From an uncultured Holophagales bacterium (GTDB taxonomy: Bacteria > Acidobacteriota > Thermoanaerobaculia > Multivoradales > UBA5704), in assembly GCA_963842525.1 (NCBI GenBank), contig CAWJGT010000014.1, positions 64,001 to 128,000 on the forward strand: 64,000 nucleotides of DNA. The letters are read 5' to 3'. Below the pieces are notes generated by a model. It made no database searches and was not told where the DNA came from. It saw only the letters and a list, made by a program, of their open reading frames with translations. Both the position numbers and the translations under genes were made by a program. Within the stretch, counting starts at the first letter, position 1. Every line of letters starts with the position of its first letter. Below, one piece after another: positions 7,453-59,614 of the stretch.

Positions 7453-8818
7453 CTACACAGCCATCGCGGCCCGGCTCGCGTAGCGCGGCACGGTGTGCAG
7501 GCGGCAGAGCTCCCGCACGCGGGCGATGACTCCTTCGCGGACCGCCCCGTCCAGCTCGTATTCGCGATCGCCCAGCGGACGGACGGCGGCGAGCACGCGG
7601 CGGACCAGGGCGGCACATTCCTCCATCTCCGGCGGCCCCATCTCACGCAGGGCCACGCTGTTGGTGCCCAGGCGCACGCCGCTGGTGATCACCTGGGCTC
7701 CGGGTATCCCCCGGAATGCGGTTCTTGTTGACCACGATATGGCACGCCTCCAACGCCCGCTCGGCCACGATGCCGGTCACCCCGGCGCTCCTGTGGACGT
7801 CCAGGATCACCAGGTGATTGTCCGTGCCGCCCGAGATCACCTCATACCCGTGGGCGGCGAAGCACAGCGCGAGCGCCTTGGCATCGTCCACGATCCGCCG
7901 CGCCAGACCGCGGAACTCCGGGGTGGTCAGCCGCGCCAGGGCCCGCGCCTTGGCGGCAATCACATTGAGCACGGGCGCCCCCTGGAAGAGCGGAAAGATC
8001 CCCTTCTGCATCGACTCGGCGAGCGTGCGGCCGAGCGCGCCGGGCGACGGCGCGTCCCAGTCCTTCCCCATCAGGATCAGGCCGCCCCGCGGGCCGTAGA
8101 GCTGCTTGTGCGTACAGGTGGTCGTGATGTGTGCATGATCGATCGGGCTGGGATGGAGCCCCGCCGCGACCAGCCCCGCAATATGCGTGATATCGGCGAG
8201 CAGCCACGCCCCGACCTCGTCGGCGATCTGCCGGAAGCGGGCGAAGTCGATGGTCCGCGGAAAGGCGGTCGTGCCGCAGATGATCAGCTTCGGCCGGTGC
8301 TCAAGGGCCAGCTCCCGCACCCGGTCGTAGTCGATGGCGCCGTCCGGGGTGACACCATACCCGACGGCATCGAAACAGCGGCCCGAGATCGAGACCTTGG
8401 CGCCGTGGGTCAGGTGCCCGCCCGCGCTCAGGTCCATGCCCAGCAGGGTGTCCCCCGGCCGCAGCAGGCTGAACATGACCACCTCGTTGGCAGTGGTCGC
8501 CGAATGGGCCTGCACATTGGCGTAGCGAGCGCCGAACGCGGCCTTGGCGCGGTCGATCGCCAAGCTCTCGATCTCGTCGATGACCTCGCAGCCGGCGTGG
8601 AACCGCGCACCCGGATACCCTTCCGCGGTCACATTGCCCGCCACCGTGGCAGTGCAGGCCAGGACGGACGGGTCCATCACACTGGAGGCCGCAACCAGGG
8701 TCAGGACCTCGCTCTGGCGCTGCAGCTCGCGCTCCAGCAGATCGGCCAGGAGCGGATCGTCCTGATACAGGAGATCGACCCCATTGGCGATGAAATCCCC
8801 CAGGCTCGTATCTCTCAT
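7453..8818 (-). CDS. Divergent serine hydroxymethyltransferase (GlyA-like, PLP-dependent), cluster-associated; one frameshift near 7690
   Basis: AEGYPGARFHAGCE, GGHLTHG, ADITHIAGLVAAG, TTCTHKQLYGPRGG, GGTDNHL, NKNRIP; C-terminus TSGVRLGT continues in ORF 7453..7692. ATG at 8818 overlaps the NRPS TGA (ATGA). Confidence 0.87.
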
Positions 8819-11800
8819 GGCCTCGCCTCCTCCAGAGGTTCTCCTTCGCGCTCCACCCGCTCCCGCTCCAACAGCATCCTCTGCACGTCGTCCTCCGACA
8901 GCTCGCTGAGCTGGAGGACCATGGCCGCGATCTCCTCCAGCTCGATCCCCTCGCTGCGACCGAGCGCCTCGGCCGTCGCCGCCACACCCGCCACCGTCGG
9001 GGCTTCGAGCAGGGCGCGCAGCGGCAGCTCGATCTGGAGCAGCGAGCGCAGCCGCGAGACCGCCTGGGTCGCGAGCAGCGAGTGCCCCCCCAGCTCGAAG
9101 AAGTTGTCCGTGGCCCCCACCTGCGGCGCCCCCAGGAGGTCGCTCCACACGCCGGCGATGACCGTCTCAATCGCCGTCCGCGGCGGCACGGGCTCGCGGG
9201 CGCCGGCCTGCACGGGCTCGGGATCCGGCAGGGCGCGGCGGTCCACCTTGCCGTTGGGCGACAGCGGCAGGGCGTTCAGGACAACCCAGGCCGTCGGGAC
9301 CATGGCCTCGGGCAGCCGGCCGCGCAGGAACGCCGCCAGATCGGAGGTCTCCACCGGCCGGCGCGGCACCACATAACCGACCAGCCGCGGCGCGCCGCCC
9401 GGCCCCGGCCGGGCCGTCACCACCGCCTCCTGCACCGCTTCGTGCTGCGCCAGGGCCGCGGTGATCTCCCCCAGCTCGATCCGTACGCCGCGCACTTTCA
9501 CCTGAAAATCGAGCCGCCCCAGCAGCTCGAGCTGGCCGTCCGGCCGCAGGCGCGCCAGGTCGCCCGTGCGATAGAGGCGGCTTCCCGGCTGGCCGCCAAA
9601 GAAACATCCAAAAGCATCGGGGACGAACTTCGAAGCCGTCAGGTCCGGCCGGCCGAAATAGCCGTGGCCGACGCCGATGCTGCCCAGCAGCAGCTCACCC
9701 GGAACGCCGACCGGCATCGGCTGCAGGAGCCGGTCGACCACATGCGCGCGCTGGTTGGCCATCGGCCGGCCGTAGGGGATGCTGCTCCACTCCGGCCGAA
9801 CTTCCTCCACGTTATAGATCGTGGAGTCCATCGAGACCTCGGTGGCACCGCCCAGGCTGATCACCGTGGCACCAGGCGCGAAGCGGCGAAGGCGGTCCGG
9901 CAGCGACAGCGGGATCCAGTCGCCGCCCAGCAAAACCAAGCGGAGATCGAGCCCCTCACTCCCTGCCCCATCCTTATTGTCCTTGACGTCCTTTGTGTCC
10001 TTTTGGCTCTCCAGATGCTGCACCAGCAGCTCCAGAAGCGCCGGCGCCGAGTGCCAGAGGGTGACCCGGTGCCGTTTCAGAAGCTCCGCCCAGCGCGCCG
10101 GATCGAGAGCGTCCGCGGCCCGCGGCAGCACGATCGCGGCGCCGGCCGCCAGGGTCCCGAAGACGTCGTAGGCGGTCATGTCGAAACCGAGCGAGGAAAC
10201 GGCCAGCAGCCGGTCGCCTGGCTCGACGTCGAAGCGCCGGTCGAAGTCCAGGAAGTTGTTGACCCGCCCGCGATGATCCAGCATGACCCCCTTGGGCGTG
10301 CCGGTCGATCCGGAGGTGTAGATCACATAGGCCGGGCTCTCCGGCATCGCCTGGGTCTCCAACGCGGTCGGTCCCTCCTGCCCCTCACTATTCAGAGTGT
10401 CGAGGCGGAGGACCGGCGCGCCATTCAAGAGCCCGCTTTTAAGCTTCGTTTGCGTGAGCAGTACAGCCGCCCGCGCGTCCTCTGCCATCAGAGCCAGCCG
10501 GGCCTGCGGATAGGCAGGGTCGAGTGGCACATAGGCGCCGCCAGCCTGCGCGATCCCTACCAGGCCGGCGACCATGTCCGTTGAACGCTCGACATTGATC
10601 CCTACCCGGTCGCCCGGCGTGACGCCCATCGAGCGCAGATGGCGGGCCAACTGGCTCGCCCGGTCCCGCAGCTCGCGGTAGGTCAGGCTCTCGTCCGCGG
10701 ACAGCACGGCCAGCGCCCCTGGGGCGCGCTCGGCCTGCTCCAGGAACAGGCTGTAGAGGGTGGCGTCCTCCGGGAAGTCGGTCCCCGTGTCGTTCCACTC
10801 GACACCGAGCTGATGCCGCTCCCCCGCCGACAGTAGCGGCAGCTCGGAGGCCGGCCGGTCCGGCTCGGCGAGAGCCGCGGTCAAAAGAGCCTCCCAATGG
10901 CCGAGCCAGCGATCGACCGTCGGCGCGTTCGAACAGGTCGGCGCTGTGCTCCACGCCGCCGCCCAGCCCTCCCTCGTTCTCGACCCCCATCAGGTCGAAA
11001 TCGAACTTGGCCGTGCCGCTGTGGAGATCGAGGGACGACAGCTCCAGGCCCGGCATGCGCAGCGGCGCAGCCGCCGGGGTGTTGTGCAGGGCGAACATGA
11101 CCTGGAAGAGCGGGTTGTGGCTGACGTCCCGCTCCGCGGTCGCGGCCTTGACCACCTCCTCGAACGGGAGGTCCTGGTGCCCGTAGGCGCCCAGCGTGAC
11201 CTCGCGCACCTGCTCCACCAATGCGCGGAAGCCGGGATCGCCCGCGAGATCGGCCCGCAGCACGAGCGTGTTGACGAAAAACCCGATCAGCCCCTCGATC
11301 TCGGCGCGGTTGCGGTTGGCGATCGGTGTGCCCACGGACAGGTCGGTCTGTCCGGTCAGGCGGTGGAGCAGCACGAAGAAGGCGGCGAGGCCGGTCATGA
11401 ACGGCGGCGCGCCCTGGCGCTGGCCGAGCTCACGGGCCGCGGACCACAGCCGCGGACCGATCCAGACCGGCCGGCGCCCGCCACGGAAGGTCGACACAGC
11501 CGACCGCCGCCGGTCCGCCGGAAGCTCCAGCACCGGCGGCGCGCCTGCCAGCCGCTTGCGCCACCAGGCGAGCTCGCGCTCCAGCGTCTCCCCCTGCAGC
11601 CGGCCGCGCTGCCAGACCGCAAAGTCGGCGTACTGGACCGGCAGCTCCGGCAGGCCGTGCCGCCGGCGCTCCCGGAAGGCCTCGTAGATCGTCGCGACCT
11701 CGCCGAAGAGCACGCCCACGGACCAGCCGTCCGCGGCGATATGGTGCAGGTTGACCAAGGCGATGTGCTCCTCAGGGCCGGTCCGCACGAGGGAGGCGCG

Positions 11801-13597
11801 GAAGAGAGTGTCCCGGGCCAGATCGAACGACCGCCCGGCCTCCTCCTGCGCCAGCCGCCGGACCTCGGCCTCCCGCGCCGCCTCCGGGACTTCCCGGAGA
11901 TCGATCACCGGCACCGCGAGATCGGGCGCGGCAACGATCACCTGGCGCGGCTGGCCCTCGGCCTCTGGAAACGTCGTACGGAGCGCCTCATGCCGGCGGA
12001 TGATCTCGCCGAGGGCCGCCCGGAAAGCCGGCACGTCGAGCGTGCCGCGCAGCCGCGCCGCGGCCGGGATGTTGTAGACCGGATTGCCCGGCTCCCACTG
12101 GTCCAGGAACCAGAGCCGCTGCTGCGCGAAGGACAGCGGCAGGTCGCCGTCGCGGGAAGCGCGCGGGATCGGCGGCGTCCCACCGTCCTTCTGCGCCGCC
12201 TTCTTGCGCAGCCGGAGCATCAACAGCGCCCGCTGCTCCGCCGTCAGCCCCGCCAGATCGCCTGGAGCCCCCTCCCCCGACCCCTCCCCCGCGCGGCCGC
12301 CACCCGCCACCCCGAGCGGGAGAGGGGCGCCACCATTCAACCCTCTCTCCTTCCCCCTCTCCCGTTCGGGGTGGCGGGCCGGGGGACGCACGGGAGAGGG
12401 GGCCAGGGGGTGAGGGCTCCGCCGGTCCGTCCGCTCCAGGATCGCCTCGAAAGGCTCCACGCCGAGGCCGACGACGAACCGGTGGGCCGCCTCGCGCGCC
12501 GCGGCCGACTGCCGGGCATAGAGGCCGGGATCACCGAGCAGCCGCGAGAGCGCCTCGCGCCAGGGGCCGATGTCCTGCGCCGGCACGACCGGCTCGGTGA
12601 CCTCGTTGGCATCCTGCCGATCGGTAAACTCCTCGATCGGGCGGACCGGTAGCACGAAGTCGGTCCCCAGCTTCGCCTCGGGCAGACCGCCGACGTCGCT
12701 CGCCAGCACCGGAATCCCCCGCAGCATCGCCTCGACGGCGGTGACGCCGAAAGCCTCCTGCCAGAGCGAGGGCATCAGCAGGACCCGGGTGCGCGCATAG
12801 ATCCGATCCACGTCATCAGCGGGCTCGAGCAGCGTGACGTTGGGCAGGGCTTCGAGCGCCTCCCGGTCCGGAGGCGTCGTCCCCCACGTCGGCACCGCCG
12901 CGAAGCGCACCCCTGGGAGGCTGCGAGCCAGCTCCAGGAAGATCGGCAGCCCCTTCACCGCGCAGGGATTGATCAGGGTGACGAAGCCGTCCGCATTGTC
13001 CTGCCCGAAGTCGGGAAACGGCCCGGAGCCGTAGATCGGAAAAGGAAAGACCTCGGCCTCCATCCCTCCCCACTGCCGGATGTAGCCGGCCACGAACCGG
13101 CTGACCGCCACGATCCGGTCCACCTGGCCGAGCATCCGGCTCCGCCGCTCGCTGGGATAGAACGCCTGCGGCCCGAACGGCAGGAAAGCCGGCGTATGGG
13201 AGAGATAGACGACCGGAGCGAGCTGCGCCTTGAGCGCCGCATCCAGCAGGTTCTGCGACGGGTCCTCCGATGACACCAGCACCCGGTCCGGCGCGAAGCT
13301 CCGGAGCCGCTCGACCAGCTCGGTCCGCAACCGCGCAGGGTCGGCCACCGCATGGACCTCGACGCCGCCGGAGCGGAACACATCGACGCCCTCACCCCGC
13401 TCCACTGCAATCCCCCGGGCCTCCAGCTTCGCAAGCACTTCCTCGCGTGTCCACCGGGACGGCACGGCCAGAGCCGGCACCACGGCCCGCACCACGTGAC
13501 CGCGTGCCGCAAGCCCCTCAGCCAACGCCCGGTTGCACTTGTTCGCCCCTCCTACAGCGGGGAACCACGGCAGATTCATGGTGAACAGGATCTTCAT
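8815..13597 (-). CDS. NRPS with N-terminal family-4 glycosyltransferase: GT4-C-A-T (frameshift near 10900)
   Basis: GT-B motifs GGANK and LLMPSLWQEAFGVTAVEAMLRGIPVLASDVGGLPEA; C domain LSFAQQRLWF, HHIAADGWS; A domain YVIYTSGSTGTPKG, YRTGDL, NGKVDR; T domain FFELGGHSLL. Joins ORFs 10439..13597 and 8815..10884. Confidence 0.9.
12267..12417. repeat. Palindromic repeat translated in frame between the GT and C domains
   Basis: Encodes PHPLAPSPVRPPARHPERERG...GGGRAGEGSGEG; ends GGGAGAGGGGGCCAGGGGGTGAGG on the + strand. Confidence 0.75.
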
Positions 13598-13729: not shown

Positions 13730-15295
13730 TCAGGATGGAGCCGACAGGTCTTCAGGGCCGGGTTCGATCGATAGGAAGTGCACCCGGCCGGACTCATCCC
13801 CGACGATTAGCCTTCCAGTCTCCGGGGAATAGGCCACCGAGCGCGGAGGTACCGAAGCGTCCCATCGGACGAGCCGGATACGATGCAACGGCAGTTCACC
13901 AACGCCACCGCGCTGACCCCACCGGTGTGCCCTTCGAGGATGCCGAGAGTCTCGCCGCTTTCAAGGTCCCATAACCGAAGCGTCTTGTCAGACGAGGCGG
14001 ACACCGCGCGACGGCCGTCTACCATCGCCACCGCGTTGACTCCAGCGGTGTGCCCTTCCAGAATGCGCAGGAGCTCGCCGCTTTCAAAGTCCCACAACCG
14101 CAGCGTCCTGGCCGAGACGGATACCGCTCGACGGTCGTCTACAACCGCCACCGCGCGGACCCCAAAGGTGTGTCCTTCCAGAGTGCGCAGGACCCTGCCG
14201 CTTTCCAAGTCCCATAACCGGAGCGTGCTGTCGTCCGAGACGGACACCACGCGACGATCGTCCACCACCGCCACCGCTCTGACCCAACTGGTGTGCCCTT
14301 CGAGGCTGCGCAGAGTCTCACCGCTTTCTAGGTCCCACACTCGAAGTGTCTGGTCGGACGAGGCAGACACCACACGGCGGCCGTCCACCACCGCCACTGC
14401 ATTGACCCAAGCCGTGTGCCCTTCAAAAGTGCGGATCAGGGGGCCTCCCGGGGGTGTCAGGTTTGCGTGTTTCGGCTGCAGCCAGATTCCGTGATTCCCA
14501 TCCCGAGATCTCCGTAGCAGTCTCTGAATCCCAGGCTCCTCCCGGTCCAGAAGCCGGCCGAGCAGCTGAGGAGCGAGCTGCGGTTTATCTCTCGCCAGGA
14601 CATGTGCCGAGAGCCGGAGGGCTCCCTCGACCAGCCGCAGCTCTTTGTCCTCCTCGCCCCGGAACCAGGAGTAGTCCGCGAGTATTTTCACTACACCGCC
14701 TCCAGATCGTCGTGAATCTCCTGGAGCGCCTGCGTCAGGGAGACCCCATCTTCCTCCACCAGCTCGCGGAGCTGTCGGTTCACGATCTTGAGAAGCAAGG
14801 GCCACTCGCCGAGCCGAGCAGCAAGGACGTTGAAGCTGGCCATATTGCCGTCCGCCAAGCCTGTGCCGAGGAGGGCTACTGCCTCAGAGCTGGCCATGGC
14901 ATCGACCTCGATGGAGATGCGGTCCGGCGGCAGAGTGCGGCTGTCCCGAGTGGTCACGAGCAGGGCAAAGCCGGAGCCGATCCCTCGGAAAGGCTCGATG
15001 TCCTCGGGCCGCCAGACATCGTCGACCACGAGAAGAGCTCGATTATCGGTCAGCACCTCGCGGAGCTTGGCGCCCGCAGTTGTCGCGGTCTCGAAGGCGG
15101 GCGGCTCTTCGTTGCGGCCCGGGTGGCACCCCTGAATCCCGCAGAGAAGGCGGTGGAAGGCATCAGCATCCTTCAGGCCAGACCGGAAGTCCACCCAGAT
15201 GAGACGGCGCAGGAAGCGGGGAAGCTCCGGCTTGTCAGGCTGGCGTGATCCAGGAAGGAGCACCGGAATGACGCGGAAATCCCCGTTGCTTACCC
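13730..15295 (-). pseudogene. Decayed TIR-NB-ARC-WD40 (NLR/APAF-1-like) gene
   Basis: TIR C-terminal part RVIPVLLPG...LPRFLRRLIWVDFR; NB-ARC Walker B LLVVDDVW, LLVTTR, EWPLLL; helical LRLSAHVLARDKPQLAPQLLGRL; five WD40 repeats (EGHT...AVAVVDGRRVVSASSDQTLRVWD). No Walker A; stop at 14691; last repeat GDESGRVHFL is out of frame. Confidence 0.72.
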
Positions 15296-15320
15296 GCTCG
15301 TCAAGCGCTCGTGCGCGGGC

Positions 15321-15668
15321 CGCACGGGGTCCAGCGGCTGCCACACGGGGTCGTGCGGCGGCGGCACGGGCTCGTGCGCGGGCTGCACGGGGTCGGGCGG
15401 CGGCGGCACGGGGTCGGGCGCGAGCCGCGCGGGGTCGGGCGGCTGCGGCACGAGGTCGAGCGGCAGCCACACGGGGTCGGGCCGCAGCCGCACGAGGTCG
15501 GGCCGCAGCCGCACGGGGTCGGGCGGCAGCCGCAGGGGGTCGTGCGCGGGCCACACGAGGTCGGGCGGCTGCCACACGAGGTCGGGCGGCAGCGGCACGA
15601 GCCCGTGCGGCTGCCGCTGGAGGTCGTGCGCGAGCGGCACGAGGCCCGGCAGCGGCCGCGCGAGGACG
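15321..15668. repeat. 21-nt tandem repeat, about 16-17 degenerate copies
   Basis: Consensus GCACGRGGTCGGGCGGCWGCC; heptad-periodic open frames on both strands. Confidence 0.85.
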
Positions 15669-16024
15669 CGTTCCTGGCACTGGCTCCCCTGCGGCTCGCA
15701 CGACATGGCCTCGTTCTCCTCAGCAAGCCTGCCGATGTGCATATTCTCCAGGATTCACATCCAGACGTCAACCAGATCTCTAGACATCCTCTGCCATGTC
15801 CAGTAAGCTACAGCATATCGAGCCGAGGCCGACACACTGTTTTGTCGCTCGGGCCAAGCTCTTTGACAATTGAAGCAAACGATAGAAACGGTTCGGGCCG
15901 TGGCCCGCCCAAGCCAGGCCCGAGCTTTTTTTAGCACCGCGGCCGGACACCGTCTTTCGACCTTGGGTCAGAAGTGCGTCTACCGCACCCCTCGGGCTCC
16001 GGCGTTCTGTGTACAATCCGGTGT

Positions 16025-16269: not shown

Positions 16270-18682
16270 TTGCGAGAGATCCGACAAGCCATCCGCCGGC
16301 TCGTCCGTACCCCTGGGCTGGCGGTCGCCGCGATCCTCTGCGCCGCGCTGGGCGTCGGCGCCGTAGGAGCGAGCTTTTCGCTCGTCGAATCCGTCCTGCT
16401 GCGTCCCCTCCCCTATCCAGAGGCCGGACGCCTGGTGATGGTGTGGGAGCGGGCTCTCGACGGCTCCGCCGAGCAGATCGTCTGCTCCTGGGCCAATTTC
16501 CTCGACTGGCGGGAGCGGAGCCGGAGCTTCGACAGGTTCGCCGCCTTCAACGTCTGGTTCCCGAGCGTGACCGGGACCGACCGCCCCGAGCGCCTGCTCG
16601 GTGCCGAGGCTACTCCGGAATTCTTCTCCGTCCTGGGCGCCAAGCCTGCCCTCGGCCGGCTGTTCCACTCCGAGGAGGGGCAGCCAGGGCGCAATGCCGT
16701 GGTGGTGCTCGGCTACGGCCTCTGGCACAGACGGTTCGGCGGTGACCCACAGGTGCTCGGACGGCGGATCGAGCTGGATGGTGCTCCGTACAGCGTCGTC
16801 GGAGTGCTGTCTCCGGGCTTCCGGCACCCCGAGCCGCTCTACTTCGACGAAACCACGGAGCTCTGGAAGCCGCTGGCCATCGAGGCCGGCACGGTGCCCC
16901 GCAGCAGCCGCTTCCTGCGCACGATCGGCCGCCTCGCGCCGGGGGTCGCACTGGACGCGGCGCAGGCCGAGATGGATGGGACCGCACGGCAGCTCGAGCG
17001 GGAGCACCCGTCCGACAACGAAGGGCTCGGCGTGCGGCTCGTCCCCCTCCACGAGCAGGTGGTGGGCGAGGTCCGGCCCGTCCTGCGGCTCGCCTTCGCG
17101 GCGTCGTTCCTGGTCCTGCTCATCGCCTGCGCCAACATCTCGGGCCTGCTGTTGGCTGCTGCCATCGGCCGCTCGCGGGAGACCGCGGTGCGCGCCGCCC
17201 TCGGCGCCGGCCGTGGACGCCTCGCGGTCCCGCTCCTTCTCGACGCCCTGCTGTTGACGCTGGCGGGCGGTGCGGCAGGGCTGGCGGTCGCGTCTCCGGC
17301 GATGCGCCTGCTCCTGGCCCGGAGCCCCAAAGCCTTTCCGCGCGCCGAGGAGGTCGGGATCGACGGCCGCGTCCTCGCCATGGCGTTGGGAGCATGCCTC
17401 CTCGCGGCCGTGCTCGCGGCCCTGGCGCCGGCCCTGCGCGCGGTCGCGCAGCCGGCCGGCCGAGGTCCTCCAGGAGGGGAGCCCCGGCGCGGGGAGCGCG
17501 CGCGGCGGACGGCTGCTGGCCCTGCTGGTGGTCCTGGAGACCGCGCTCGCCCTGCCGCTCCTCGCCGGAACGGGCCTGCTGGCAAAGAGCCTCGCCGGGC
17601 TGTCCCAGGTCCCCCTCGGGTTCGCGGCGGAGGACGTGCTGACGCTGCGCCTGGAGCTGCCGGCCGGGACCTATCCGGAGGCGGCGGATCGGCGGGCCTT
17701 CGCCGAGCGCCTCCTGGAACGGGTCGCCGCGCTGCAAGGCGTCCGGTCAGCCGGGCTCACCTCGACTCTTCCCCTCTCGGGGCTCTATGACATCAGCCGC
17801 GAGGCCATCCTCGATCCGCCGCCGCCCCAAGGGCCGGCTTCGATGCAGGCGGGATACCGGTCCGTCAGCCCCGGCTATTTTCAGGCTTTGGGCATCCCCG
17901 TCCTGGCCGGACGGCCCTTCGGCTCGGGGGACGGTCCCGAAGCGTTCGACGTGGCGCTGGTCAACCGGGCCTTTGCCAAGGCCGCCTGGGGTGACGCGAG
18001 CCCGCTCGGCCGAAAGGTAGTGCTGCGGAGCACGTCCGGCGACGTGACCCGGGAGGTCGTAGGCCTGGTCGGCGACGTGCGCCACGAAGGTCCGGCCGTG
18101 GAGCCGAAGCCGGAGATCTTCGTGCCGCAGTCCCAGAGCCCGACCCGCTTCGCGGCGTTGGTGGTGCGGGCCGAGGGGAGGACCGAGGCTCTGGCCGGCG
18201 CGCTCCGGAATGCGGTCCGCGAGATCGATCCGGATCTGCCGGCCGAGATTCGACCGATGGCCGAGCTGACGCACGGCGCCACAGCAGGGCCGCGCTTTCA
18301 GCTTCTGGTCGCCGGTCTACTCGGCACGGCCGCCGTGATCCTGGTGGCCGCGGGGATCGGCGGCGTAACCGCCTATTCGACGGCGCGGCGGACCCGCGAG
18401 ATCGGCATCCGCATGGCGCTCGGCGCCGGGCGGCGCGAGATCCTCCTCCTGGTGCTCCGCCGTGCTCTCGGGCTGACGCTGGCCGGCACGGTGCTCGGTC
18501 TGGCCGGCGCCCGGATCCTCACCCGCGGCATCGCCGGAATGCTTTTCGGGGTCGAGCCGGCCGACCCGGCAATGCTGGCCGCCGCGGCCCTGCTCCTCCT
18601 GCTGGTCGGTCTGGCCGCCGGCTGGCTCCCGGCCCGCCGCGCCCTAGGGGTCGATCCCGCCTCGGCACTGCGGTCGGAGTGA
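16270..18682 (+). CDS. ABC transporter permease, duplicated MacB/FtsX type (ADOP-like); frameshift near 17450
   Basis: VLLRPLPYPEAGRLV, VLLIACANISGLLLA, AVRAALGAGRGRL; second half TREIGIRMALGAGR...RALGVDPASALRSE. Joins ORFs 16270..17790 and 17270..18682. Confidence 0.87.
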
Positions 18683-18684
18683 GG

Positions 18685-18886
18685 CCTCACCCCCTGTCCC
18701 CCTCTCCCATCGCCCTCCCACCAACCGGGAGAGGGGGGACGTAGCTCGGGCTTGCAGGCGAGGTCGAGGCTTTTTCATGAGGGAGCCCCTGAGGAGCTCC
18801 GGCAAGCTACCTCCTCAGAGCAGCAACCACGTCCCCCCTCTCCCGGGGGAAGGGAGGGAGATGGGAGAGGGGGACAGGGGGTGAGG
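18685..18886. repeat. Full palindromic repeat between convergent genes
   Basis: CCTCACCCCCTGTCCCCCTCTCCCATC at left and GATGGGAGAGGGGGACAGGGGGTGAGG at right (terminal inverted repeats with internal hairpins). Confidence 0.8.
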
Positions 18887-18890
18887 ACAC

Positions 18891-19670
18891 CTACCCCACG
18901 AGATACCCCGCCGCCCGCATCTCCTCGAACAAGCCGGCCGGCAGCCCCGTGCGCGTGCAGAGATCCTCCACGGAGCTCTCTCCGTCGCACGCGGCAAGCG
19001 CCCTCCCCTGCCCGGCGGGGATCGACTTCATCGCCACCCGGCCCACGCCCGAGGCCGTGAGGAGCAGCCAGTGTTCCCCTTCCGGCAGGCCGTCCGGAGC
19101 CTGCTTCGCATCGAGAGCCTGGAGCACGGCGTCCGGATCGTGCCGGTAGCGGACCACCCGGCAGAGAGGATGGAGACGGAGGACGCAGGCGTCCGGAGCG
19201 GCGGTGGAGGGGGGCTCCGCGGGCGGCTGCCAGGCGCCGCCGGCTCGCCCCAGGTGGAGCATCGCCACCTCCGTCTCCAGCACCTCCTTGACGAAGCCGT
19301 TCACCAGACTGCCGTCGCGGAGCCGGGCGACGAGAAAATCCGCGAAGCTCAAGGCCTCGCGCAGGTAGATCTGCGTCTCCGGGGGGTGCTCGCTCCAGTA
19401 GGCCTGCACCATCTCCTTGAGCCCGCGCGGGCCGAGCACCCGGCAGGTGCGCGGCAGGGTGTTCGAGAGCATGCTCAGGCGGTTGGCGCGGTGGAGCATC
19501 GTCCCGGTCCGCAGCCTCGGGTCCTTCGCCAGCGTTTCGAGACGCCGCCGCTCCCGTGCGGAGAGGTCGAACGCGGCGAGGCTCTGCTCCGGGTCTTCGG
19601 CGACCCGCGCCCGGAAGGCGGACGACATCACCAGCTCGGAAAACGCCTGCTGGAAACCTTGGAGAGACAC
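18891..19670 (-). CDS. Putative MNIO partner protein (DUF2063/RRE-like)
   Basis: Starts about 10 nt after the DUF692 gene; MSLQGFQQAFSELV..., LPRTCRVLG...AYWSEHPP...EALSFADFL and a C-terminal winged-helix-like segment (ALAACDGESSVEDL...AAGYL) resemble DUF692 partners. Confidence 0.68.
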   Translation of the reverse strand: MSLQGFQQAFSELVMSSAFRARVAEDPEQSLAAFDLSARERRRLETLAKDPRLRTGTMLHRANRLSMLSNTLPRTCRVLGPRGLKEMVQAYWSEHPPETQIYLREALSFADFLVARLRDGSLVNGFVKEVLETEVAMLHLGRAGGAWQPPAEPPSTAAPDACVLRLHPLCRVVRYRHDPDAVLQALDAKQAPDGLPEGEHWLLLTASGVGRVAMKSIPAGQGRALAACDGESSVEDLCTRTGLPAGLFEEMRAAGYLVG

Positions 19671-19679
19671 CGGATGCGG

Positions 19680-20586
19680 TCAGGCGCGGCGGTCGAGGGC
19701 CTCCCGGGCCTTGCGCAGCTCCTGGCGCAGCGGCTCGGGGCCGATGCTGGGGAAATAGTTGCCGAACATCTCGAAGACCACCCCCGCCAGGTTCGGCGTC
19801 CGCGGCAGGGTCTCGTCGAGCATCCGCCATACCTCTTCCGGACAGGGGCCGCTGTGCGCGTCGAGGTACACGCCGTCCACCTCCATGCCGCCGCCGAGGT
19901 GGACCTCGACCACGCGCGTGAGATCCAGCCCGTCCAGGAGCTCCATGGGATCGAACCCGTGATTGCGGGCATTGACATAGACGTTGTGGAGGTCGAGCAG
20001 CAGGCCGCAGCCGGTCCGGGCCGACAGCCGGTTGAGGAACTCCGCCTCGCCCATCTCCTGCTCGGGGATGTCGAAGTAGTAGACGTTGTTCTCCAGCAGG
20101 AAGGGGACCGGCACCTCGGCCTGGACGTGCCCGACCCGCTCGCTGAGCATGTCGAGCACCGCCTCGTCATACGGCACCGGCAGGGTCAGGCCGACGTCGA
20201 CCGAATGGCCCGACGGGCTCTCCAGCCGGATGAACGAGAGGTGGTCGCTGTGCCAGGGGAATCCGTAGCGCCGCTGCCAGGCGGAGATCTGGTCCACGTG
20301 CCCGGTGTTCGAACCGGTCTGCGCTGCCGATCGACAGGCCGACACTGTGGGCCACAATGGGCTTGTGCTCCGCGACCCGGTCGAGAAACGGCTTCGAGTC
20401 CGGGTTCTCGCGATAGCGGCCGGGCGTCCCGGTCCCCTGGTCGGTCCAGAAGATGTCGGGGATGATCTCCAGGAAGTCGAAGCTGTCGAGGTTCTCGAGG
20501 ACGAAGTCGCGCAGCGGTCCCTGGTAGGAAAGGCCCACGCCGAGCTTCGGCAATGCGTCGAGACGGTTGTTGGGGAGGCTGGACAT
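19680..20586 (-). CDS. DUF692 family multinuclear non-heme iron-dependent oxidative enzyme (MNIO); frameshift near 20310
   Basis: LGVGLSY, DFLEIIPD, HSVGLSIGS, WHSDHLSF, FLLENN, GLLLDLHNVYVNARNHGFDP, VEVHLGGG, LDAHSGP, VVFE. Joins ORFs 20167..20634 and 19680..20357. Confidence 0.9.
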
Positions 20587-20604
20587 CAGGCTCCTGGTGT
20601 GGAA

Positions 20605-20628
20605 CGCGCACGCCCGGAGGCGTGCGCG
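20605..20628 (-). promoter_or_regulatory. Stem-loop between precursor genes and MNIO gene
   Basis: CGCGCACGCC-CGGA-GGCGTGCGCG, perfect 10-bp stem without a U-tract. Confidence 0.5.
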
Positions 20629-20643
20629 CATCACGGCCAGTCG

Positions 20644-20799
20644 TCAGTCGAAGAGGGCTTCCTGGAAGCCGCCGTCGCCGATGATCGTCGGATCGACGCC
20701 GGACAGGCAGGTCGGGCAGCTCTCGGTGGGGACCTTCGTCAAGTGCTCGGGGGCGTTGACCTCGGCCTTCTCTTCGACTTCCATGACTCTGTTCTCCAT
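20644..20799 (-). CDS. RiPP precursor peptide 2 (51 aa, CPTC motif)
   Basis: MENRVMEVEEKAEVNAPEHLTKVPTESCPTCLSGVDPTIIGDGGFQEALFD*; RBS AAAGGAGG; paralogue of the adjacent peptide; directly upstream of the MNIO. Confidence 0.85.
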   Translation of the reverse strand: MENRVMEVEEKAEVNAPEHLTKVPTESCPTCLSGVDPTIIGDGGFQEALFD

Positions 20800-20876
20800 C
20801 GGCTCCTCCTTTAGGGGCTCGGGCGTTCTACTTTCTTTAGGTGCGCGGTTGCGATCTTTCCGGGACCAGCCGGTCG

Positions 20877-21032
20877 TCAGTCGACGAGAGCTTCCTGGAA
20901 GCCGCCGTCGCCGATGATCGTCGGATCGATGCCGGACCTGCAGGTCGGGCAGCTCTCGGTGGGGACGATCGCCGCGAGCTCGGGGGTGTTGACCTCCGGC
21001 TTCTCTTCGACGTTCATGACCTTGTTCTCCAT
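20877..21032 (-). CDS. RiPP precursor peptide 1 (51 aa, CPTC motif)
   Basis: MENKVMNVEEKPEVNTPELAAIVPTESCPTCRSGIDPTIIGDGGFQEALVD*; RBS AAAGGAGGT; starts 84 nt after the NRPS stop. Confidence 0.85.
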   Translation of the reverse strand: MENKVMNVEEKPEVNTPELAAIVPTESCPTCRSGIDPTIIGDGGFQEALVD

Positions 21033-21116
21033 GCGAAACCTCCTTTGGCAGGGCTTATGCGCCCTACCCTCTCTAGGTGCACGAAGACGCCCTTTCCGGG
21101 ACCGGCCAGGGCGTTC

Positions 21117-46966
<25,850 letters not shown>

Positions 46967-47226
46967 CCGCGTGGGGTTCCTGACGGGTTGTGCATCTTTC
47001 TCACTCCGAATCAACCTGGGGAGGGCCGACCTCGGGCCTGCAGCGGCCGAAGGGCCGGCAAGACTACCACGACCGGCCTACCCAAGCCCCTTTCTCCTAC
47101 GGTGCCGCGAACCCCTCGGATGGGGGCGCGGTCCATGCTTCTCCAGGAAACGCCGGGGGGATGCGGAGACCCTCAGGCAAGGGTCCGAGGCCAGGCACTG
47201 AGGATGACAGGTGCTATGCTTTCCCT

Positions 47227-51740: not shown

Positions 51741-53906
51741 TCATCCGCCGCCGCACGCCTTCCCCACCCCAAGCTGCCATCTGAAGAAGCCGAGCTCGTC
51801 CACGATCCCGCGGAGCTGCATATCCACCGGTGCTCCCATGCCATGGCCTGCCTCGCGCTCGACCTGGAGGAGGATGGGCTCCGTTGCGGGATCGCTCGCG
51901 GTCGAGGCCTGGAGCAGCGCTGTCATCTTGCGGGCGTGGAGCGGGTGGACCCGCTCGTCCTTCTCTCCCGCGGTGAGGACGACGGCCGGGTACTTCGTCC
52001 CCTTCTTGACATTGTGGTAGGGCGAGTAGCGCCGGAGATATGGAAACTGTTTCGGATCGGCGCTCGATCCATACTCGCTCACCCAGTTGCGCGCGCGCAG
52101 AAAGTGATGGAAACGGAGCATGTCCAGGAGCGGCACGCCGGCGATCACGGCGGAAAAGAGGTCCGGACGCTGCGTGAGCACGGCGCCCGTGAGCAGGCCG
52201 CCGTTCGAGGCTCCGGTGATGCCGAGCCGCTCCGGCCGTGTATAGCCGTTCGCGATCAACCACTCGGCCGCGGCGATGAAATCGTCGAAGACGTTCTGCT
52301 TGCGCTCGAACATCCCGGCCTCGTGCCAGGACTCGCCGTGCTCGCCGCCGCCACGGAGGTTCGGCAGCGCATAGACGCCCCCATCTTCGAACCAGGGGAG
52401 GCGGGCGACATTGAAAAACGGCGTCATGGAGATCGAGAAGCCGCCGTAGCCCTCCAGGATCGTGGGGTTGCAGCCGTGGAGCTTCAATCCCTTTTTGTGG
52501 ACCACGAACATCGTGACCCGGGTGCCGTCCTTGGAGGCGTATTCGACCTGCTTGACCTCCAGGCTCGACGGGTCGAAAGGGGTCTCCTCGCGCCACCAGA
52601 GCTTCCGCTCGCCGGTGCGCAGGTTCACGCGGTAGACGCTCGGCGGCTCGTTGAAGCTGGTATAGAAGAGATATCCCACCGGACTCTCGGGGGTACCAAC
52701 GAGATCCGCCGAGCCGATGCCGGGCAGCGCCAGGGGACCCCGCGGCGTGCCGTCCAGCTCGAACAGCTCGATCCGCGTGCTGGCGTCGTGGAGGTAAGTG
52801 CCGGCCAGGAGGTCGCCCACCTGCCAGATGTAGACCAGGGAGTCCTTACGCTCCGGGATCAGCTCGCGCCAGCGCTCCGGCGACGGGTCCTTGAGGTCCA
52901 CGGCCACGACCCTGCGGTTGAGGGCATTGAGCGTGGTGCTCATGTAGAAGGTGTCGCCCACGATCGGGTCCGTATAGCGATAGACGTCCGGCAGGCCGGC
53001 CTGGGCCTTCTGCCCCACGAGGATTGGGCGGTGCTCGGCTTTGCCGGTCTCCAGCCACTGGCGGAAGTCCATGACCCAGAGGTCGTTCGAATTGCTGCCG
53101 GTCCACTGCCCGAGGACGAGCCAGCGGCCGTCGCGGCTCAGGCGTCCGAACGGACCCCAGGTCGAAGCCGCGGGTCCTTCCTTCGGCTGCTCCAGGAGCA
53201 CGCGGTCCTGTTTGGCATCCGTCCCGACCTTGTGGAAGCGGATGCGGCGCGAGTAGGGGTCCTTCAGGTCTTCGAGGTTGTTGTAGACGAAGCCCGAGCC
53301 GTCGGGCAGCCAGTCCACCTCGCGGACCCTGTTGCGGATCTCGTCCGGCAGCCACTTGCCGGTGCCGGTCTCGACCAGGTGGAGGGTGGCGTTCTCGTCG
53401 CCGGACCGGAAGAGCCCCACCGCGACGAGCCGGCCGTCGTGGCTCGGCTCCCACCAAGCGATCGTGGTGAGGCCGCTCGGGTCGCGGAGGTTGGGATCGA
53501 CCAGGGAGCGTGCCGGGCCCTCGCCCTCCGCCGTCATGAGCACCGCCTGATTCTGCTCAGGGCTTCCCGCCAGGAAGAAAAGCTGTCCGCCACGCACCGT
53601 GGGAGCGGAGCGGAAGGCCGACGAGCCGGTGACGGCCTTGACGCGCGCCTCCAACTCCTTGCGGCCGGGCAGGTTGTCGAGGATGCTGCGAGCATAGGCG
53701 TTCTGCGCGTCGGTCCACGCGCCGACCTTCGCATCGAGCCCGGGATCGGGCTTCGCCATCTCCGGCGCCGCGCTCCCTTCGAGCCAGCGGTAGGGGTCCA
53801 CGACCTCCGTCCCGTGAAAGACATCGCGGACAGGCTTGACCTCGGTGGGCGGAGGGGCGGCGGCGAGGGAGATCACAGCGGCGGCGGTGGCGAGCGTTCG
53901 GCGCAT
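51741..53906 (-). CDS. Prolyl oligopeptidase (S9A), secreted
   Basis: DPYRWLE, SKDGTRV, GYGGF, NLRGGGE, KQNVFDDFI, catalytic GASNGG, DERVHP, AGHG; signal peptide from ATG 53906. Confidence 0.92.
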   Translation of the reverse strand: MRRTLATAAAVISLAAAPPPTEVKPVRDVFHGTEVVDPYRWLEGSAAPEMAKPDPGLDAKVGAWTDAQNAYARSILDNLPGRKELEARVKAVTGSSAFRSAPTVRGGQLFFLAGSPEQNQAVLMTAEGEGPARSLVDPNLRDPSGLTTIAWWEPSHDGRLVAVGLFRSGDENATLHLVETGTGKWLPDEIRNRVREVDWLPDGSGFVYNNLEDLKDPYSRRIRFHKVGTDAKQDRVLLEQPKEGPAASTWGPFGRLSRDGRWLVLGQWTGSNSNDLWVMDFRQWLETGKAEHRPILVGQKAQAGLPDVYRYTDPIVGDTFYMSTTLNALNRRVVAVDLKDPSPERWRELIPERKDSLVYIWQVGDLLAGTYLHDASTRIELFELDGTPRGPLALPGIGSADLVGTPESPVGYLFYTSFNEPPSVYRVNLRTGERKLWWREETPFDPSSLEVKQVEYASKDGTRVTMFVVHKKGLKLHGCNPTILEGYGGFSISMTPFFNVARLPWFEDGGVYALPNLRGGGEHGESWHEAGMFERKQNVFDDFIAAAEWLIANGYTRPERLGITGASNGGLLTGAVLTQRPDLFSAVIAGVPLLDMLRFHHFLRARNWVSEYGSSADPKQFPYLRRYSPYHNVKKGTKYPAVVLTAGEKDERVHPLHARKMTALLQASTASDPATEPILLQVEREAGHGMGAPVDMQLRGIVDELGFFRWQLGVGKACGGG

Positions 53907-54060
53907 ACAGGGTTCCTCCGTCCAGGGCTTGGACCTTCTACGAAGGATAGACGAGAAGAGTTTAGAGGACGTTTCGGGCACATGGAACCGGATTCCCTGT
54001 CCTCCTCTCTAATCCTCACAGAGGCGCCTCTCCACAACGGTCCATCCAGGAGGTGGAGAG

Positions 54061-56819: not shown

Positions 56820-58469
56820 CTACTCCTCCCGCACAGCCTCGGGGGCCCGCCCGAAGTCGCCAGGCATCTCGGCCGCGGCATAAGCGGCCGCGGCCCAGGC
56901 GGCGACGTTCTGGTCCATGTCCTTGGGGTCGATCTTGTCGAGCGTGTCGTTGGCGGTGTGGTGCCAGTCGAAATAGTCCGTGCCGTCCTGGTTGAGGCTG
57001 AGGACCGGGACGCGGGCCGGGGTCATCGGGATCAGGTCCGCTCCTCCGCCGGCTTCGTTGTTGCCGCGCTCGATGCCGAGCGGAGCGAGCACCTTGGCGA
57101 TCTGGTCGACAACCGGCAGCGTCTCGGGAGCGACCCTTGTGGAGATGCGCCAGACCTTGCCGGAGCCGAAGTCCGACTCGCCGGCCAGGACGTGCCGCGG
57201 CAGCTCGGCCTCGTGCGCCTGGGCATAGGCTCGGGCTCCGGAGAGGCCGAACTCCTCGTTGGCGAAGAGCACGACCCGGACTGTCCGGCGGGGCCGTTGT
57301 TTCAGCGCGCCGATCCGCCGCGCCGCCTCCATCACGATGGCGCAGCCGGCGCCGTCGTCGACTGCGCCGGTCCCCGGATGCCAGGAGTCGAGATGGCAGC
57401 CGAGGAGGACGATCTCCTCCGGCTTCTCCCGTCCCGGGATCTCGCCGATCACGTTCGCCGACTCGGCGTCGGGGAGGTGGCGGCTGGTCAGCTTCAGGCG
57501 GAAGGTCACCGGCTTGCTGCTGGCGACCTGGGCGGACAGCAGATCGGCGTCCGGGTTCGAGAGCGCCGCCGCCGGGATGCGCGGCACGCCTTCTTCATAG
57601 CGGAGCGAGCCGGTGTGGGGCGTGCGGTTGTTGTCGGTTCCCACGGAGCGGATCAGGACCGCGACCGCCCCGAGCTTCGCGCCGGCCGAAGCTCCCCGGC
57701 CGCGCGCACCGACCGCCTCGCCGTAGCCGGAGCCGTCCTTCCGGCGCTCCATCCGCTTGCTGATGAAGACGATCTTGCCCCGGACCGCTTCCGCATCCAT
57801 CTTGTCGAGCGCTTCGACGGAAGGGACCTCCACGACCGGCGCCTCGATCCCGCCGTCCGGCGTACCGACGCTGCCGCCAAGGGCGATCAGCACCACCGGC
57901 TGCGGCCAGGGCGCGGTGATCCACCCTTCCCCCGTGCCGATGTCCCAGTGCGGGACCGTGACCTTCTCCGCGCGGACGTTCTGGAAGCCCAGCTCCTTCA
58001 TCGTCCGCAGCCCCCACTCGACCGCCCGGCGGTCTCCCTCGGAGCCCGCCGGGCGCGACCCGACCTCGGTGGTCAGGGAACGGACGATTTCGAAGGCTCC
58101 GGTGCCCTGGAGGGCACCGTCGCGCAGGGAGGCTGCGGTGGCTAGGGTGGCCTCCGGGAGAGGGGTGATCGGATCGGTGGCGTCGGCGGCGCGGCACGAG
58201 GCGGCGGCCGCGAGGAGGAGGATTGCGGAGAGGATGGAGGCCGTGGTCCTCACCCCCTGTCCCCCTCTCCCATCTCCCACCCGCCCCATCCCCGGGAGAG
58301 GGGGGACGTTGATGGGGCGGTCTGCGCGAGTCCCTGGCAGCCCATCTGCGGAGGGCTTGTCTCGACCTTGCCTCGGACGCTCTGCCTGCGTCCCCCCTCT
58401 CCCGGCGGGGGGTGGAAGGGAGATGGGAGAGGGGGACAGGGGGTGAGGACCCGCCGGGCGTACCGTCAT
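56820..58469 (-). CDS. M28 family metallopeptidase (carboxypeptidase Q-like, PA domain); start is ATG 58469 or GTG 58253
   Basis: CHLDSW, GAVDDGAG, LFANEEFGLSGA, ESDFG, YFDWHHTANDTLDKID. Confidence 0.88.
   Translation of the reverse strand: MTVRPAGPHPLSPSPISLPPPAGRGGTQAERPRQGRDKPSADGLPGTRADRPINVPPLPGMGRVGDGRGGQGVRTTASILSAILLLAAAASCRAADATDPITPLPEATLATAASLRDGALQGTGAFEIVRSLTTEVGSRPAGSEGDRRAVEWGLRTMKELGFQNVRAEKVTVPHWDIGTGEGWITAPWPQPVVLIALGGSVGTPDGGIEAPVVEVPSVEALDKMDAEAVRGKIVFISKRMERRKDGSGYGEAVGARGRGASAGAKLGAVAVLIRSVGTDNNRTPHTGSLRYEEGVPRIPAAALSNPDADLLSAQVASSKPVTFRLKLTSRHLPDAESANVIGEIPGREKPEEIVLLGCHLDSWHPGTGAVDDGAGCAIVMEAARRIGALKQRPRRTVRVVLFANEEFGLSGARAYAQAHEAELPRHVLAGESDFGSGKVWRISTRVAPETLPVVDQIAKVLAPLGIERGNNEAGGGADLIPMTPARVPVLSLNQDGTDYFDWHHTANDTLDKIDPKDMDQNVAAWAAAAYAAAEMPGDFGRAPEAVREE
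58248..58449. repeat. Full palindromic repeat overlapping the 5' end of the M28 peptidase
   Basis: CCTCACCCCCTGTCCCCCTCTCCCATCTCCC...GGGAGATGGGAGAGGGGGACAGGGGGTGAGG. Confidence 0.8.
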
Positions 58470-58486
58470 CGTCCCTGTCCCGATCC

Positions 58487-59614
58487 TCAGGCCGCGACCG
58501 GCAGCCGGTTCATCTGCCGCAGGGTCTGCTTCCACTCCGCGAGCGCCTTCTCGAGGGCGTGGTAGGTCAGGCCCAGCCGGGTCTCCCAGGGCATGTGCGA
58601 CTCTTCAGCGGCTGCCGCCTTCCTGGCCGGGCGCCGTTGCAGCGTCAGCAATTCGTGCAGCGCGGCCTGCAGCCGGGCATGGGCCTCGTGCAGGCGCTTC
58701 TCGGCGTCCTCGCGGAGGTGGTGCACCACGTTCTCCATCCTCTCCCGCGCGGCCTCGAACTGCAGCTCAACCTTGGCCTTGAGCACGGCCGCCTCGGGCG
58801 CCCGCCGGATGTCCTTGACCAGGCCCACCTTGGACATCAGGTAGATGGCCCACTTGGCGGGGTCGAACTGCCAGACCTTGACGCCGTTGCGGTAGTCGAA
58901 CGGGAAGCTGTGGTGGTAGTTGTGGTACCCCTCGCCGAACGCCAGCACCGCCATGATGCCGCTGTCGCGGGCGCTGTGCTCGCGGCTGTACGGCTGCCGC
59001 CCGATCATGTGGCAAAGGCTGTTGATGAAGAAGGTCGTGTGGTGGCTGACCACGACGCGCAGCACGCCGCCGATCAGGAGGCAGCCCAGCAGCTCGCCGG
59101 TGAGCAGGCCGACCACCAGCGGGATGCCGAACGCCACGCCGAGGCCGAGGAGCACGTACCAGCGGTCCTGCCAGACCACGAGCCGGTCCTCCATCAGGTC
59201 GCGGACGACCGTGCGGCTGGGCTTCTCGCTCTCGAAGAAGATCCACCCGATGTGGGCCCACCAGAACCCCTTCTGGATGTTGTAGGGGTCGCGCTCCTCG
59301 TCGACGTGCGCATGGTGGACCCGGTGGTCGGCGGTCCAGGCGAGGACCGAGTTCTCGAGCGCGCCGGCGCCGAAGACCAGGAAGAAGAGGCGCACCGGCC
59401 AGGCCGCCTGGTAGGTCTTGTGGGCGAAGAGGCGATGGTAGCCGCCGGTGATCGACAGCCCGACGGCGAGCCAGATCCCGGCAAACGTCAGGGTCTCCGG
59501 CCAGCCGAGGCCGTGCGTCATCAGATACCAGGGTGTACCGACGAGGGCGATGAGCAGGGTTCCCAGCAGGAAAATGGTGCTGGTCACATTGACACGGGGT
59601 TTCTCTTCGGCCAC
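58487..59614 (-). CDS. Delta-9 acyl-CoA/fatty acid desaturase
   Basis: His boxes GYHRLFAH, DHRVHH, NSLCH, GEGYHNYHH, DYRNG; coiled-coil C-terminus. Confidence 0.92.
   Translation of the reverse strand: MAEEKPRVNVTSTIFLLGTLLIALVGTPWYLMTHGLGWPETLTFAGIWLAVGLSITGGYHRLFAHKTYQAAWPVRLFFLVFGAGALENSVLAWTADHRVHHAHVDEERDPYNIQKGFWWAHIGWIFFESEKPSRTVVRDLMEDRLVVWQDRWYVLLGLGVAFGIPLVVGLLTGELLGCLLIGGVLRVVVSHHTTFFINSLCHMIGRQPYSREHSARDSGIMAVLAFGEGYHNYHHSFPFDYRNGVKVWQFDPAKWAIYLMSKVGLVKDIRRAPEAAVLKAKVELQFEAARERMENVVHHLREDAEKRLHEAHARLQAALHELLTLQRRPARKAAAAEESHMPWETRLGLTYHALEKALAEWKQTLRQMNRLPVAA

Follow-up and report, generated by a model that had tools for sequence, protein, structure and literature searches.

What do two small, paralogous genes beside an oxidative iron enzyme encode, and which part of their products would the enzyme recognize? 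The question is raised by a 64,000-nucleotide (nt) stretch of DNA, here called the window, from an uncultured Holophagales bacterium (GenBank assembly GCA_963842525.1, contig CAWJGT010000014.1, positions 64,001 to 128,000 of the forward strand). [quoted passage not shown] Ever more unusual peptide chemistry is being traced to MNIO enzymes, most of whose minor substrate families are still to be assigned. [quoted passage not shown] The features of the cassette are as follows.

20877..21032, minus strand: pepA, a 51-residue precursor with a putative leader at about residues 1-17 and the core CPTC-R-SG-I-DP...FQEALVD (from the ORF, ribosome-binding site, homologues and position 5' of the MNIO gene).
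20644..20799, minus strand: pepB, a paralogous 51-residue precursor with CPTC-L-SG-V-DP...FQEALFD (from the ORF and 78% identity to pepA).
21033..21107, minus strand: upstream element of pepA, a ribosome-binding site plus a conserved 57-nt block that is repeated 5' of pepB (direct repeat, sequence comparison).
20800..20871, minus strand: upstream element of pepB, in which the 57-nt block recurs, again with a ribosome-binding site (direct repeat).
20604..20629, minus strand: GC-rich hairpin with an 11-bp stem and a 4-nt loop, between pepB and the MNIO gene.
19680..20586, minus strand: MNIO gene (DUF692, PF05114), with one extra base at 20308/20309.
18891..19670, minus strand: partner gene, 259 residues, with an N-terminal DUF2063-like helical domain and a C-terminal domain like a RiPP recognition element (RRE).

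Both precursor ORFs lie on the minus strand at exactly the coordinates given in the initial annotation, and each has a ribosome-binding site, AAAGGAGG, 6-7 nt 5' of its ATG. Neither peptide matches any Pfam or NCBIfam model. Three of the last 29 residues differ between them (R32L, I35V, V50F), as the annotation had it, and its consensus for this part is correct, as is the Asp at the end of both. Where it counted about 10 differences in the first 22 residues there are eight (K4R, N7E, P12A, T16A, L19H, A20L, A21T, I22K), four of which form a single patch at residues 19-22. Taken from this pair alone, the contrast is only modestly above chance (Fisher's exact test, two-sided p = 0.039). In residues 1-27 the highest 10-residue Kyte-Doolittle mean is 1.1 in pepA and -0.16 in pepB, and the net charge is -4 in both. 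Because the N-terminus is acidic and free of a hydrophobic stretch, the claim that neither peptide has a Sec signal holds as well by these measures. So does the description of the segment after the CxxC as acidic, with a net charge of -3 in pepA and -4 in pepB.

The near-identity of the two C-terminal halves might reflect recent duplication or gene conversion, and not selection. The genes are indeed a tandem repeat of 233 nt; the two copies share 88% identity over 164 nt and the two 57-nt blocks 72%, and nearly all nucleotide differences change a residue: a synonymous difference is found in 1 of the 40 codons whose residue is identical. Nothing points to conversion of the 3' half alone, since the N-terminal codons for identical residues are also without synonymous change (0/14). 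Against duplication as the cause stand copies of both paralogue types on other contigs, with differences almost only N-terminal (the B-type P0005, which is pepB but for one residue; the A-type P0002 and P0003), and distant homologues of 32-50% identity that retain the core. The family alignment largely refutes this explanation, and we consider it very improbable.

That alignment was built in steps. A search with a single sequence returned only five proteins, including the two from the window itself. When 1.84 billion representatives were searched exhaustively with a profile, 11 hits came up, of which nine were true relatives, and a profile of 16 members then found 85 proteins at E <= 0.01 among 822 candidates. 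The set analysed comprises 87 sequences, 85 with a single core and two with a double core. Two sequences were excluded from all counts. P0008 (1797 residues) is a false positive that matched through repeats without Cys, and P0015, with three IVPPEGCKTCKSAGP repeats, is of uncertain kinship. The latter, a metagenomic sequence of 93 residues, carries ARIVPPEGCKTCKSAGP three times in tandem and may be a distant multi-core CxxC relative, or unrelated. The single hit for a longer or fused form was an ordinary member whose ORF had been over-extended. None of the 87 members is covered by a Pfam or NCBIfam model, and apart from an automatic 'uncharacterized membrane-anchored protein' every source name is 'hypothetical protein'. 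Where a source is named, it is a metagenome-assembled genome (MAG) of Thermoanaerobaculia, or Archangium. A full-text literature search, with subscription-only papers and the PDF supplement of PMC12452194 outside its scope, found no description of the motif or the family.

The initial annotation had proposed a variable N-terminus and a near-invariant core, to be checked in an alignment of homologues. Once the relatives are included the contrast is solid: mean pairwise identity among the 85 single-core members is 0.17 for the part more than five residues upstream of the first Cys and 0.53 for the rest. The split is repeated in the 62 members without a double-glycine leader (0.24 vs 0.57) and in the 23 with one (0.37 vs 0.72). 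Since the C-terminal half is conserved in homologues, the proposal stands on this point. C-x-x-C-x-S-G is present in 85/85, as CPTC in 68, CPAC and CQVC in five each, CLVC in three, CLTC in two, and CRVC and CTTC in one each. A D-P follows two residues past the Gly, after SGx, in 81/85, and all aligned rows (100%) have the Leu of the distal motif F/Y-Q-E-A-L. The first Cys is 23-27 residues away from the C-terminus in all 85 members, and exactly 25 in 60. Two metagenomic precursors of 99 residues (P0006 and P0016) contain two full modules, each ECPTC-x-SG-x-DPNVSG...LFxEAL, and not a repeated CxxC alone. That these double-core precursors repeat the whole unit suggests that the CxxC and the distal motif act as one module.

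The N-terminal part falls into two classes. Class I holds 62 members, including the window peptides, and its leaders share ME...E...[AT]PE. Class II holds 22 members by pattern (23 as grouped), mostly Archangium-like, with a double-glycine motif such as LEQVTGG located 9-13 residues before the first Cys. The corresponding leader motif, [LIVM]-x-x-[LIVM]-x-G-G, is found in neither pepA nor pepB. Class I peptides have [AT]-P 10-11 residues before the first Cys, at a distance equal to that of the class II double glycine, and about 34 residues at the end of pepA and pepB probably make up the mature core. The 'inverted' precursor architecture of the initial annotation was thus overstated. With a canonical double-glycine motif in 22/85 members the N-terminal part is still a leader, and the order of leader, then core, is conventional. 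The unusual trait is that a near-invariant core seems to hold its own docking motif. As we would draw it, the precursor begins with a leader of about 17-25 residues that is short, acidic and weakly conserved. After a hypervariable junction (residues 19-22 in pepA and pepB) comes a core of about 34 residues and near-fixed length, [VI]P-x-E-[ES]-C-P-[TA]-C-x-S-G-x-D-P-[TS]-[IV]-(3-5 residues)-[FY]-Q-E-A-L-x-x(-x-x).

Is the gene neighborhood conserved along with the peptide? A degenerate DNA pattern of the core, run against a species-representative genome collection, gave six matches, of which four are true. The other two, L001 (Sphingomonas) and L002 (Brevundimonas), are chance matches within unrelated frames. 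The four loci are a lower bound because the pattern misses the CQVC/CLVC, DPS and DT variants; the matches did not include the genome that the window comes from.

L004: Thermoanaerobaculia MAG, intact MNIO.
L006: Holophagales UBA5704, two precursor genes, the second with CTTC.
L003: Archangium MAG.
L005: Archangium violaceum Cb vi76.

In all four, as in the window, the peptide gene or genes are followed by the MNIO gene and then by the partner gene, which comes directly after the MNIO gene in 5/5 loci. The partners of the related loci are 253-268 residues long. The precursor family is real and had no name before, and it goes with a distinct MNIO/partner pair. The second precursor of L006 (8134-8274, plus strand) has CTTC in place of CPTC and DPYV in place of DP[TS][IV], and so CPxC does not require its Pro.

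The hairpin between the last precursor and the MNIO gene is also shared in part. In the window a folding energy of -35.2 kcal/mol (z = -4.9) is computed for the surrounding 54-nt stretch (20590-20643), none of 200 shuffles being as stable, and hairpins of 11-12 bp with a near-identical stem are at the same place in L004 (about 2790-2825) and L006 (about 8287-8314). The Archangium loci lack it, and their precursor and MNIO genes are 7 nt apart. It is likely an attenuator or an mRNA-stabilising stem-loop. Ahead of the Archangium precursor genes (L003 8141-8260, L005 8138-8257, minus strand) a TTGAC-N17-TACTAT sequence ends a few bases before the ATG, which suggests a nearly leaderless transcript. 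Other ORFs at these loci were set aside. Those of about 456-479 residues 3' of the partner in L003, L005 and L006 have no Pfam match, are mutually unlike (E 0.15) and look like wrong-frame artefacts, and a methyltransferase 5' of the L004 peptide (UbiG, 148 bits vs a cut-off of 103) is probably unrelated.

The enzyme itself is an MNIO. The window gene is read in two frames, and its pieces match PF05114 with 30.7 and 168 bits (cut-off 25) at profile positions 1-68 and 65-261; the enzymes of L003, L004 and L006 match over the full length with 198-218 bits. Placed end to end, the two pieces match the intact L004 enzyme (69% and 82% identity), the gene being conserved in all its other parts, and DNA alignment to L003, L004 and L006 places a single extra base at 20308/20309. 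The motifs HSVG, SDHLSF, LLENN, LDLHN, LDAHS and FEMF, which we take to supply the iron ligands, are all present, and the reading frame is broken. Frame pieces also occur in neighboring genes, namely an ADOP-type permease and nonribosomal peptide synthetase (NRPS) genes at 34.5-47 kb. The simplest reading is that the breaks are assembly indels, the alternative being real decay.

Which chemistry the enzyme would perform is less readily told from its relatives. The best of the named NCBIfam models is BufB, at 164-178 bits (L004 177.8, cut-off 310), followed by HvfB at 133-141 (L004 140.8, cut-off 360), ApyH at 110-137 (L004 135.5, cut-off 400), ChrH at 71-79 (L004 71.3, cut-off 600) and MbnB at about 20 (L004 21, cut-off 325). 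As the MNIO is under all named NCBIfam equivalog cut-offs, the chemistry cannot be transferred from any known enzyme. The nearest solved structures by sequence are TglH (8hci_D, E 1.9e-32) and the DUF692 protein 3bww.

The ApyH score bears on the suggestion, made in the initial annotation, that the terminal Asp is a second MNIO site. An aminopyruvate-forming reaction on this residue would agree with the Asp that ends both pepA and pepB, with ApyH as third-best model and with a weak match of the partner to ApyI. The ApyH cut-off is unreached, no P450 or other aminopyruvatide gene is nearby, and, unlike in aminopyruvatide-type precursors, a conserved C-terminal Asp is missing. The last residue is Leu in 54/85 members, Val in 11/85 and Asp in 6/85, the Asp-ended ones all being close to the window peptides, and in most members the aligned Asp has two further residues after it. 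With so few Asp-ended members the terminal target is not a family feature, and that part of the annotation finds no support. Judged from the sequences, the conserved function cannot be an ApyH-like reaction on a C-terminal Asp; for the window peptides too we find this reading scarcely credible.

ChrH-like chemistry has a better claim. The CPxC cysteines would then become a macrocycle with a hydantoin, as in the chryseobasins and DybA, and not thiooxazoles. The motif is similar to C-P-x-C-x-x-G and shares its +6 Gly with the CPACGMG of the chryseobasin/DybA (ChrH-type) systems, which also have their Cys three residues apart and also occur in Myxococcota, and the accessible text of the ChrH study reports that a ChrH homologue modifies an Archangium peptide whose CPACGMMM motif is embedded and not terminal (PMC13056109). 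The initial annotation had set our motif beside the chryseobasin one, and it does resemble, yet differ from, the CPxCGxG that the same text places at the peptide end (PMC13056109). Here CP[TA]C-x-S-G-x-D-P is followed by about 18 more conserved residues, 23-27 lie between the first Cys and the end, and the Gly of CPxCG never follows the second Cys, position +4 being mostly V, A or L. The extra C-terminal helical bundle described there for all ChrH-type enzymes (PMC13056109) is also lacking, in enzymes of about 300 residues whose match ends at profile position 262 of 363 and which score 71-79 bits on ChrH vs 164-178 on BufB. Unlike ChrH/DybH clusters, which are mostly partnerless, this family always encodes a partner of 250-270 residues. 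We regard ChrH-like chemistry as unlikely.

A closer comparison is with bufferins, oxazolins and fontiphorin ('captophorins'), which combine an MNIO with a DUF2063 partner (PME-type 1) and carry 5-thiooxazoles on Cys. The order precursor/MNIO/partner is the same, BufB and HvfB are the best-scoring named models, the partners likewise have DUF2063-like and RRE-like domains, and the Cys are invariant. Unlike bufferin and oxazolin precursors, the precursors here lack a Sec signal, the DUF2282 domain, EGKCG, and any Lys-Cys or Cys-Lys motif. The enzyme scores are about half of the cut-offs (178 vs 310; 141 vs 360), the DUF2063 match of the partner is borderline or none, and the DoxX gene is absent. 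Against the accessible text of the captophorin study, the family fits none of the types given there (PMC13097082). Bufferin modification is stated, in the available part of the source, to be independent of the signal peptide (PMC11626156), and a dispensable signal peptide is a precedent for recognition inside the core.

In the TglHI/pearlin systems the Cys modified by TglH is a C-terminal one, added by a peptide aminoacyl-tRNA ligase (PEARL). TglH is the best solved sequence match of the enzyme and TglI the best fold match of the partner, and the precursors are likewise signal-less. Here, unlike in TglHI, the Cys are internal, there is no PEARL gene, and the partner is 14% identical to TglI. 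An MNIO survey, in the portion available, associates bona fide DUF2063 partners with precursors that have a Sec signal, and DUF2063-like 'type 2' partners with those that lack one (PMC12452194). It also lists 'adjamnio-7', signal-less putative precursors with CxxC beside a minor MNIO cluster, which we compared by description only (PMC12452194). The example organism is Novilysobacter, a genus not among the family hits. Two spreadsheets of the survey, one of them as a partial file, contain no occurrence of 'adjamnio-7', its representative accession, 'CPTC', 'Archangium' or 'Thermoanaerobaculia'.

The partner belongs to the same fold class as TglI and the DUF2063 proteins. PF09836 (DUF2063) scores 29.6 bits on the window partner, borderline at a cut-off of 27.2, and is under the cut-off (26.6, 21.4 bits) or absent in those of L003, L004 and L006. 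The AlphaFold2 model (mean predicted local distance difference test score, pLDDT, 75.9) is helical in its N-terminal domain and beta/alpha in its C-terminal one. Its best matches in the PDB are TglI (8hci_A, E 1.2e-5, template modeling (TM) score 0.53) and NGO1945 (3dee, E 2e-4, TM 0.43/0.52), the prototype DUF2063 protein. Both came from fold comparison only; the partner profile had no hit at E <= 1 to PDB sequences. Scores in an ESM Atlas look-up (<=0.86) were under the useful range. A block HRA.RLSML.NT.PRT is invariant in the five partners.

How would the three proteins meet? We predicted the complex of the intact L004 trio (MNIO, partner and peptide) from custom alignments of 4, 5 and 15 rows. 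The median score is 0.65, and the controls gave 0.02 and 0.02 with unrelated peptides and 0.45 with the MNIO replaced. The mark applied is reached by 116/157 solved complexes and by 2/215 mismatched pairs. Runs agreed in at least 28% of contacts, and pLDDT was at least 41 for partner and peptide. The confident peptide contacts are residue 29 (the first Cys), residues 35-40 (GVDPTI) and residues 43-51 (TLFQEALHD). In the model the peptide touches partner residues 57-89, in the helices of the DUF2063-like domain that include the invariant block, and MNIO residues 234-245 and 274-280, which adjoin the conserved DAHS and FEMF motifs. The score of 0.45 with the MNIO replaced suggests that the peptide-partner contact carries most of the signal. 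In MbnABC and TglHI, both solved systems, the bound segment is N-terminal to the modified Cys. Because the predicted topology differs from theirs, it is unlikely to have been copied from those structures. One candidate charge pair, peptide E47 with partner K85 in Acidobacteriota, which touch in the model, becomes N/S with Q in Archangium, a single lineage contrast. By placing FQEAL on the partner and the first Cys at the MNIO, the model supports, but does not show, the follower-like recognition that the initial annotation had raised.

On the favored reading the distal amphipathic [FY]QxxL segment would dock on the helical DUF2063-like domain of the partner and so keep the CxxC, which lies 15-20 residues upstream, within the MNIO's iron site. 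The enzyme would then oxidise one or both Cys. Our first guess is 5-thiooxazole-type heterocycles (compare BufB/HvfB), giving a metal-binding site, and our second a ChrH-like macrocycle. The leader would serve in export or cleavage, not in enzyme recognition. If the docking is true, a C-terminal tag of about 10 residues could steer MNIO chemistry to engineered peptides, and the DUF2063 domain would gain a function. A stronger form, which we hold to be possible but doubtful, makes the DUF2063-type helical domain of MNIO partners itself a peptide-binding module that grips the [FY]QxxL helix C-terminal to the modified Cys, restricts the leader to export, and comes with the bolder NRPS extension described below. 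If true, this would be the first MNIO system with follower-side recognition.

The same docking model, with its tail contacts in residues 35-51, fits a true follower of the bottromycin type, in which the DP...FQEAL segment would serve recognition only, as a handle cut off after modification. The product would then be a small macrocycle or heterocycle formed from CPTC, with the D-P as a possible release point. The tail is fixed in length and sequence, as such a handle might be. A precedent is found in the accessible text on the std cluster, where EWQE, a conserved C-terminal motif, proved to be a removed follower (PMC13174530). No peptidase gene is present in the cassette, however, in the window or in 4/4 related loci, and the closest ones in the window, S9 (51741-53981) and M28 (56820-58535), are at least 30 kb from it. 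We therefore rate removal of the tail as rather improbable.

Against the favored reading, in which the docking tail stays part of the core, several points have to be set. The partner retains its RRE-like C-terminal domain, and RRE-like domains bind leaders in other RiPP systems. The leader is not random: 14/22 N-terminal residues of pepA and pepB are identical, and class I leaders share a motif. The docking rests on one prediction, in which the mark is passed by exactly the required +0.20, the peptide has a pLDDT of 41-49 and the alignments are shallow; the leader is not confidently placed in it, which is no evidence against leader-RRE binding. If the extra base is real, the window copy of the MNIO may be inactive. 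No leader peptidase or exporter, C39/ABC exporters included, is encoded within 8 kb of the Archangium loci L003 and L005, and none of the L003, L004 and L006 enzymes reaches a named NCBIfam equivalog cut-off.

Whichever reading is right, the family is a compact three-gene system with a 50-residue substrate. Its sharp motif, CxxCxSGxDP...FQEAL, is found in Acidobacteriota and Myxococcota, phyla poorly explored for RiPPs, and it offers a concrete hypothesis for substrate recognition by a DUF2063-type partner.

The window cassette is embedded among NRPS genes, the adjacent one being the following.

21117..34517, minus strand: four-module NRPS ORF of 4466 residues, ending 84 nt upstream of pepA (Pfam).

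Its last module (21117-24500) contains an FkbM methyltransferase domain, and a terminal carrier domain with a tail of about 40 residues but no thioesterase. The C-terminal 1127 residues are 75% identical over 1146 aligned positions to the counterpart in L006 (4199-7591), which is likewise 5' of the precursor genes. No such neighbor is present in L004, L003 or L005. As it recurs only in L006, the NRPS is not a feature of the family. In the bolder extension mentioned above, the cassette and the adjacent thioesterase-less NRPS of the window and L006 may together make a ribosomal/non-ribosomal hybrid. The NRPS genes at 34517-47014 (minus strand) are in at least five frame pieces with partial A, C and T domains, and the adjoining 13.4-kb ORF has none; either the assembly error rate is uneven or part of the cluster has decayed. 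Further NRPS parts lie past the cassette at 8815-13597 (minus strand), among them an ORF shared by a family-4 glycosyltransferase and a condensation domain, and an A-T ORF.

Some other genes of the window are of minor interest. The S9 gene (minus strand) encodes a prolyl oligopeptidase. Enzymes of this type trim some RiPPs, and no tie to the cassette was found. At 16270-18682 (plus strand) an ADOP/MacB-type duplicated permease, with MacB_PCD-FtsX twice, is read in two overlapping frames, which implies a break at about 17.4-17.5 kb. The region between this gene and the convergent partner gene (18685-18886) is hairpin-rich and probably a bidirectional terminator; the only Rfam hits, chance miRNA-like ones, fall within it. 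TIR, NB-ARC and WD40 pieces are found in two overlapping ORFs at 13807-15701 (minus strand), and at about 14.9-15.7 kb a long Ala/Arg/Pro-rich repetitive stretch is open in several frames.

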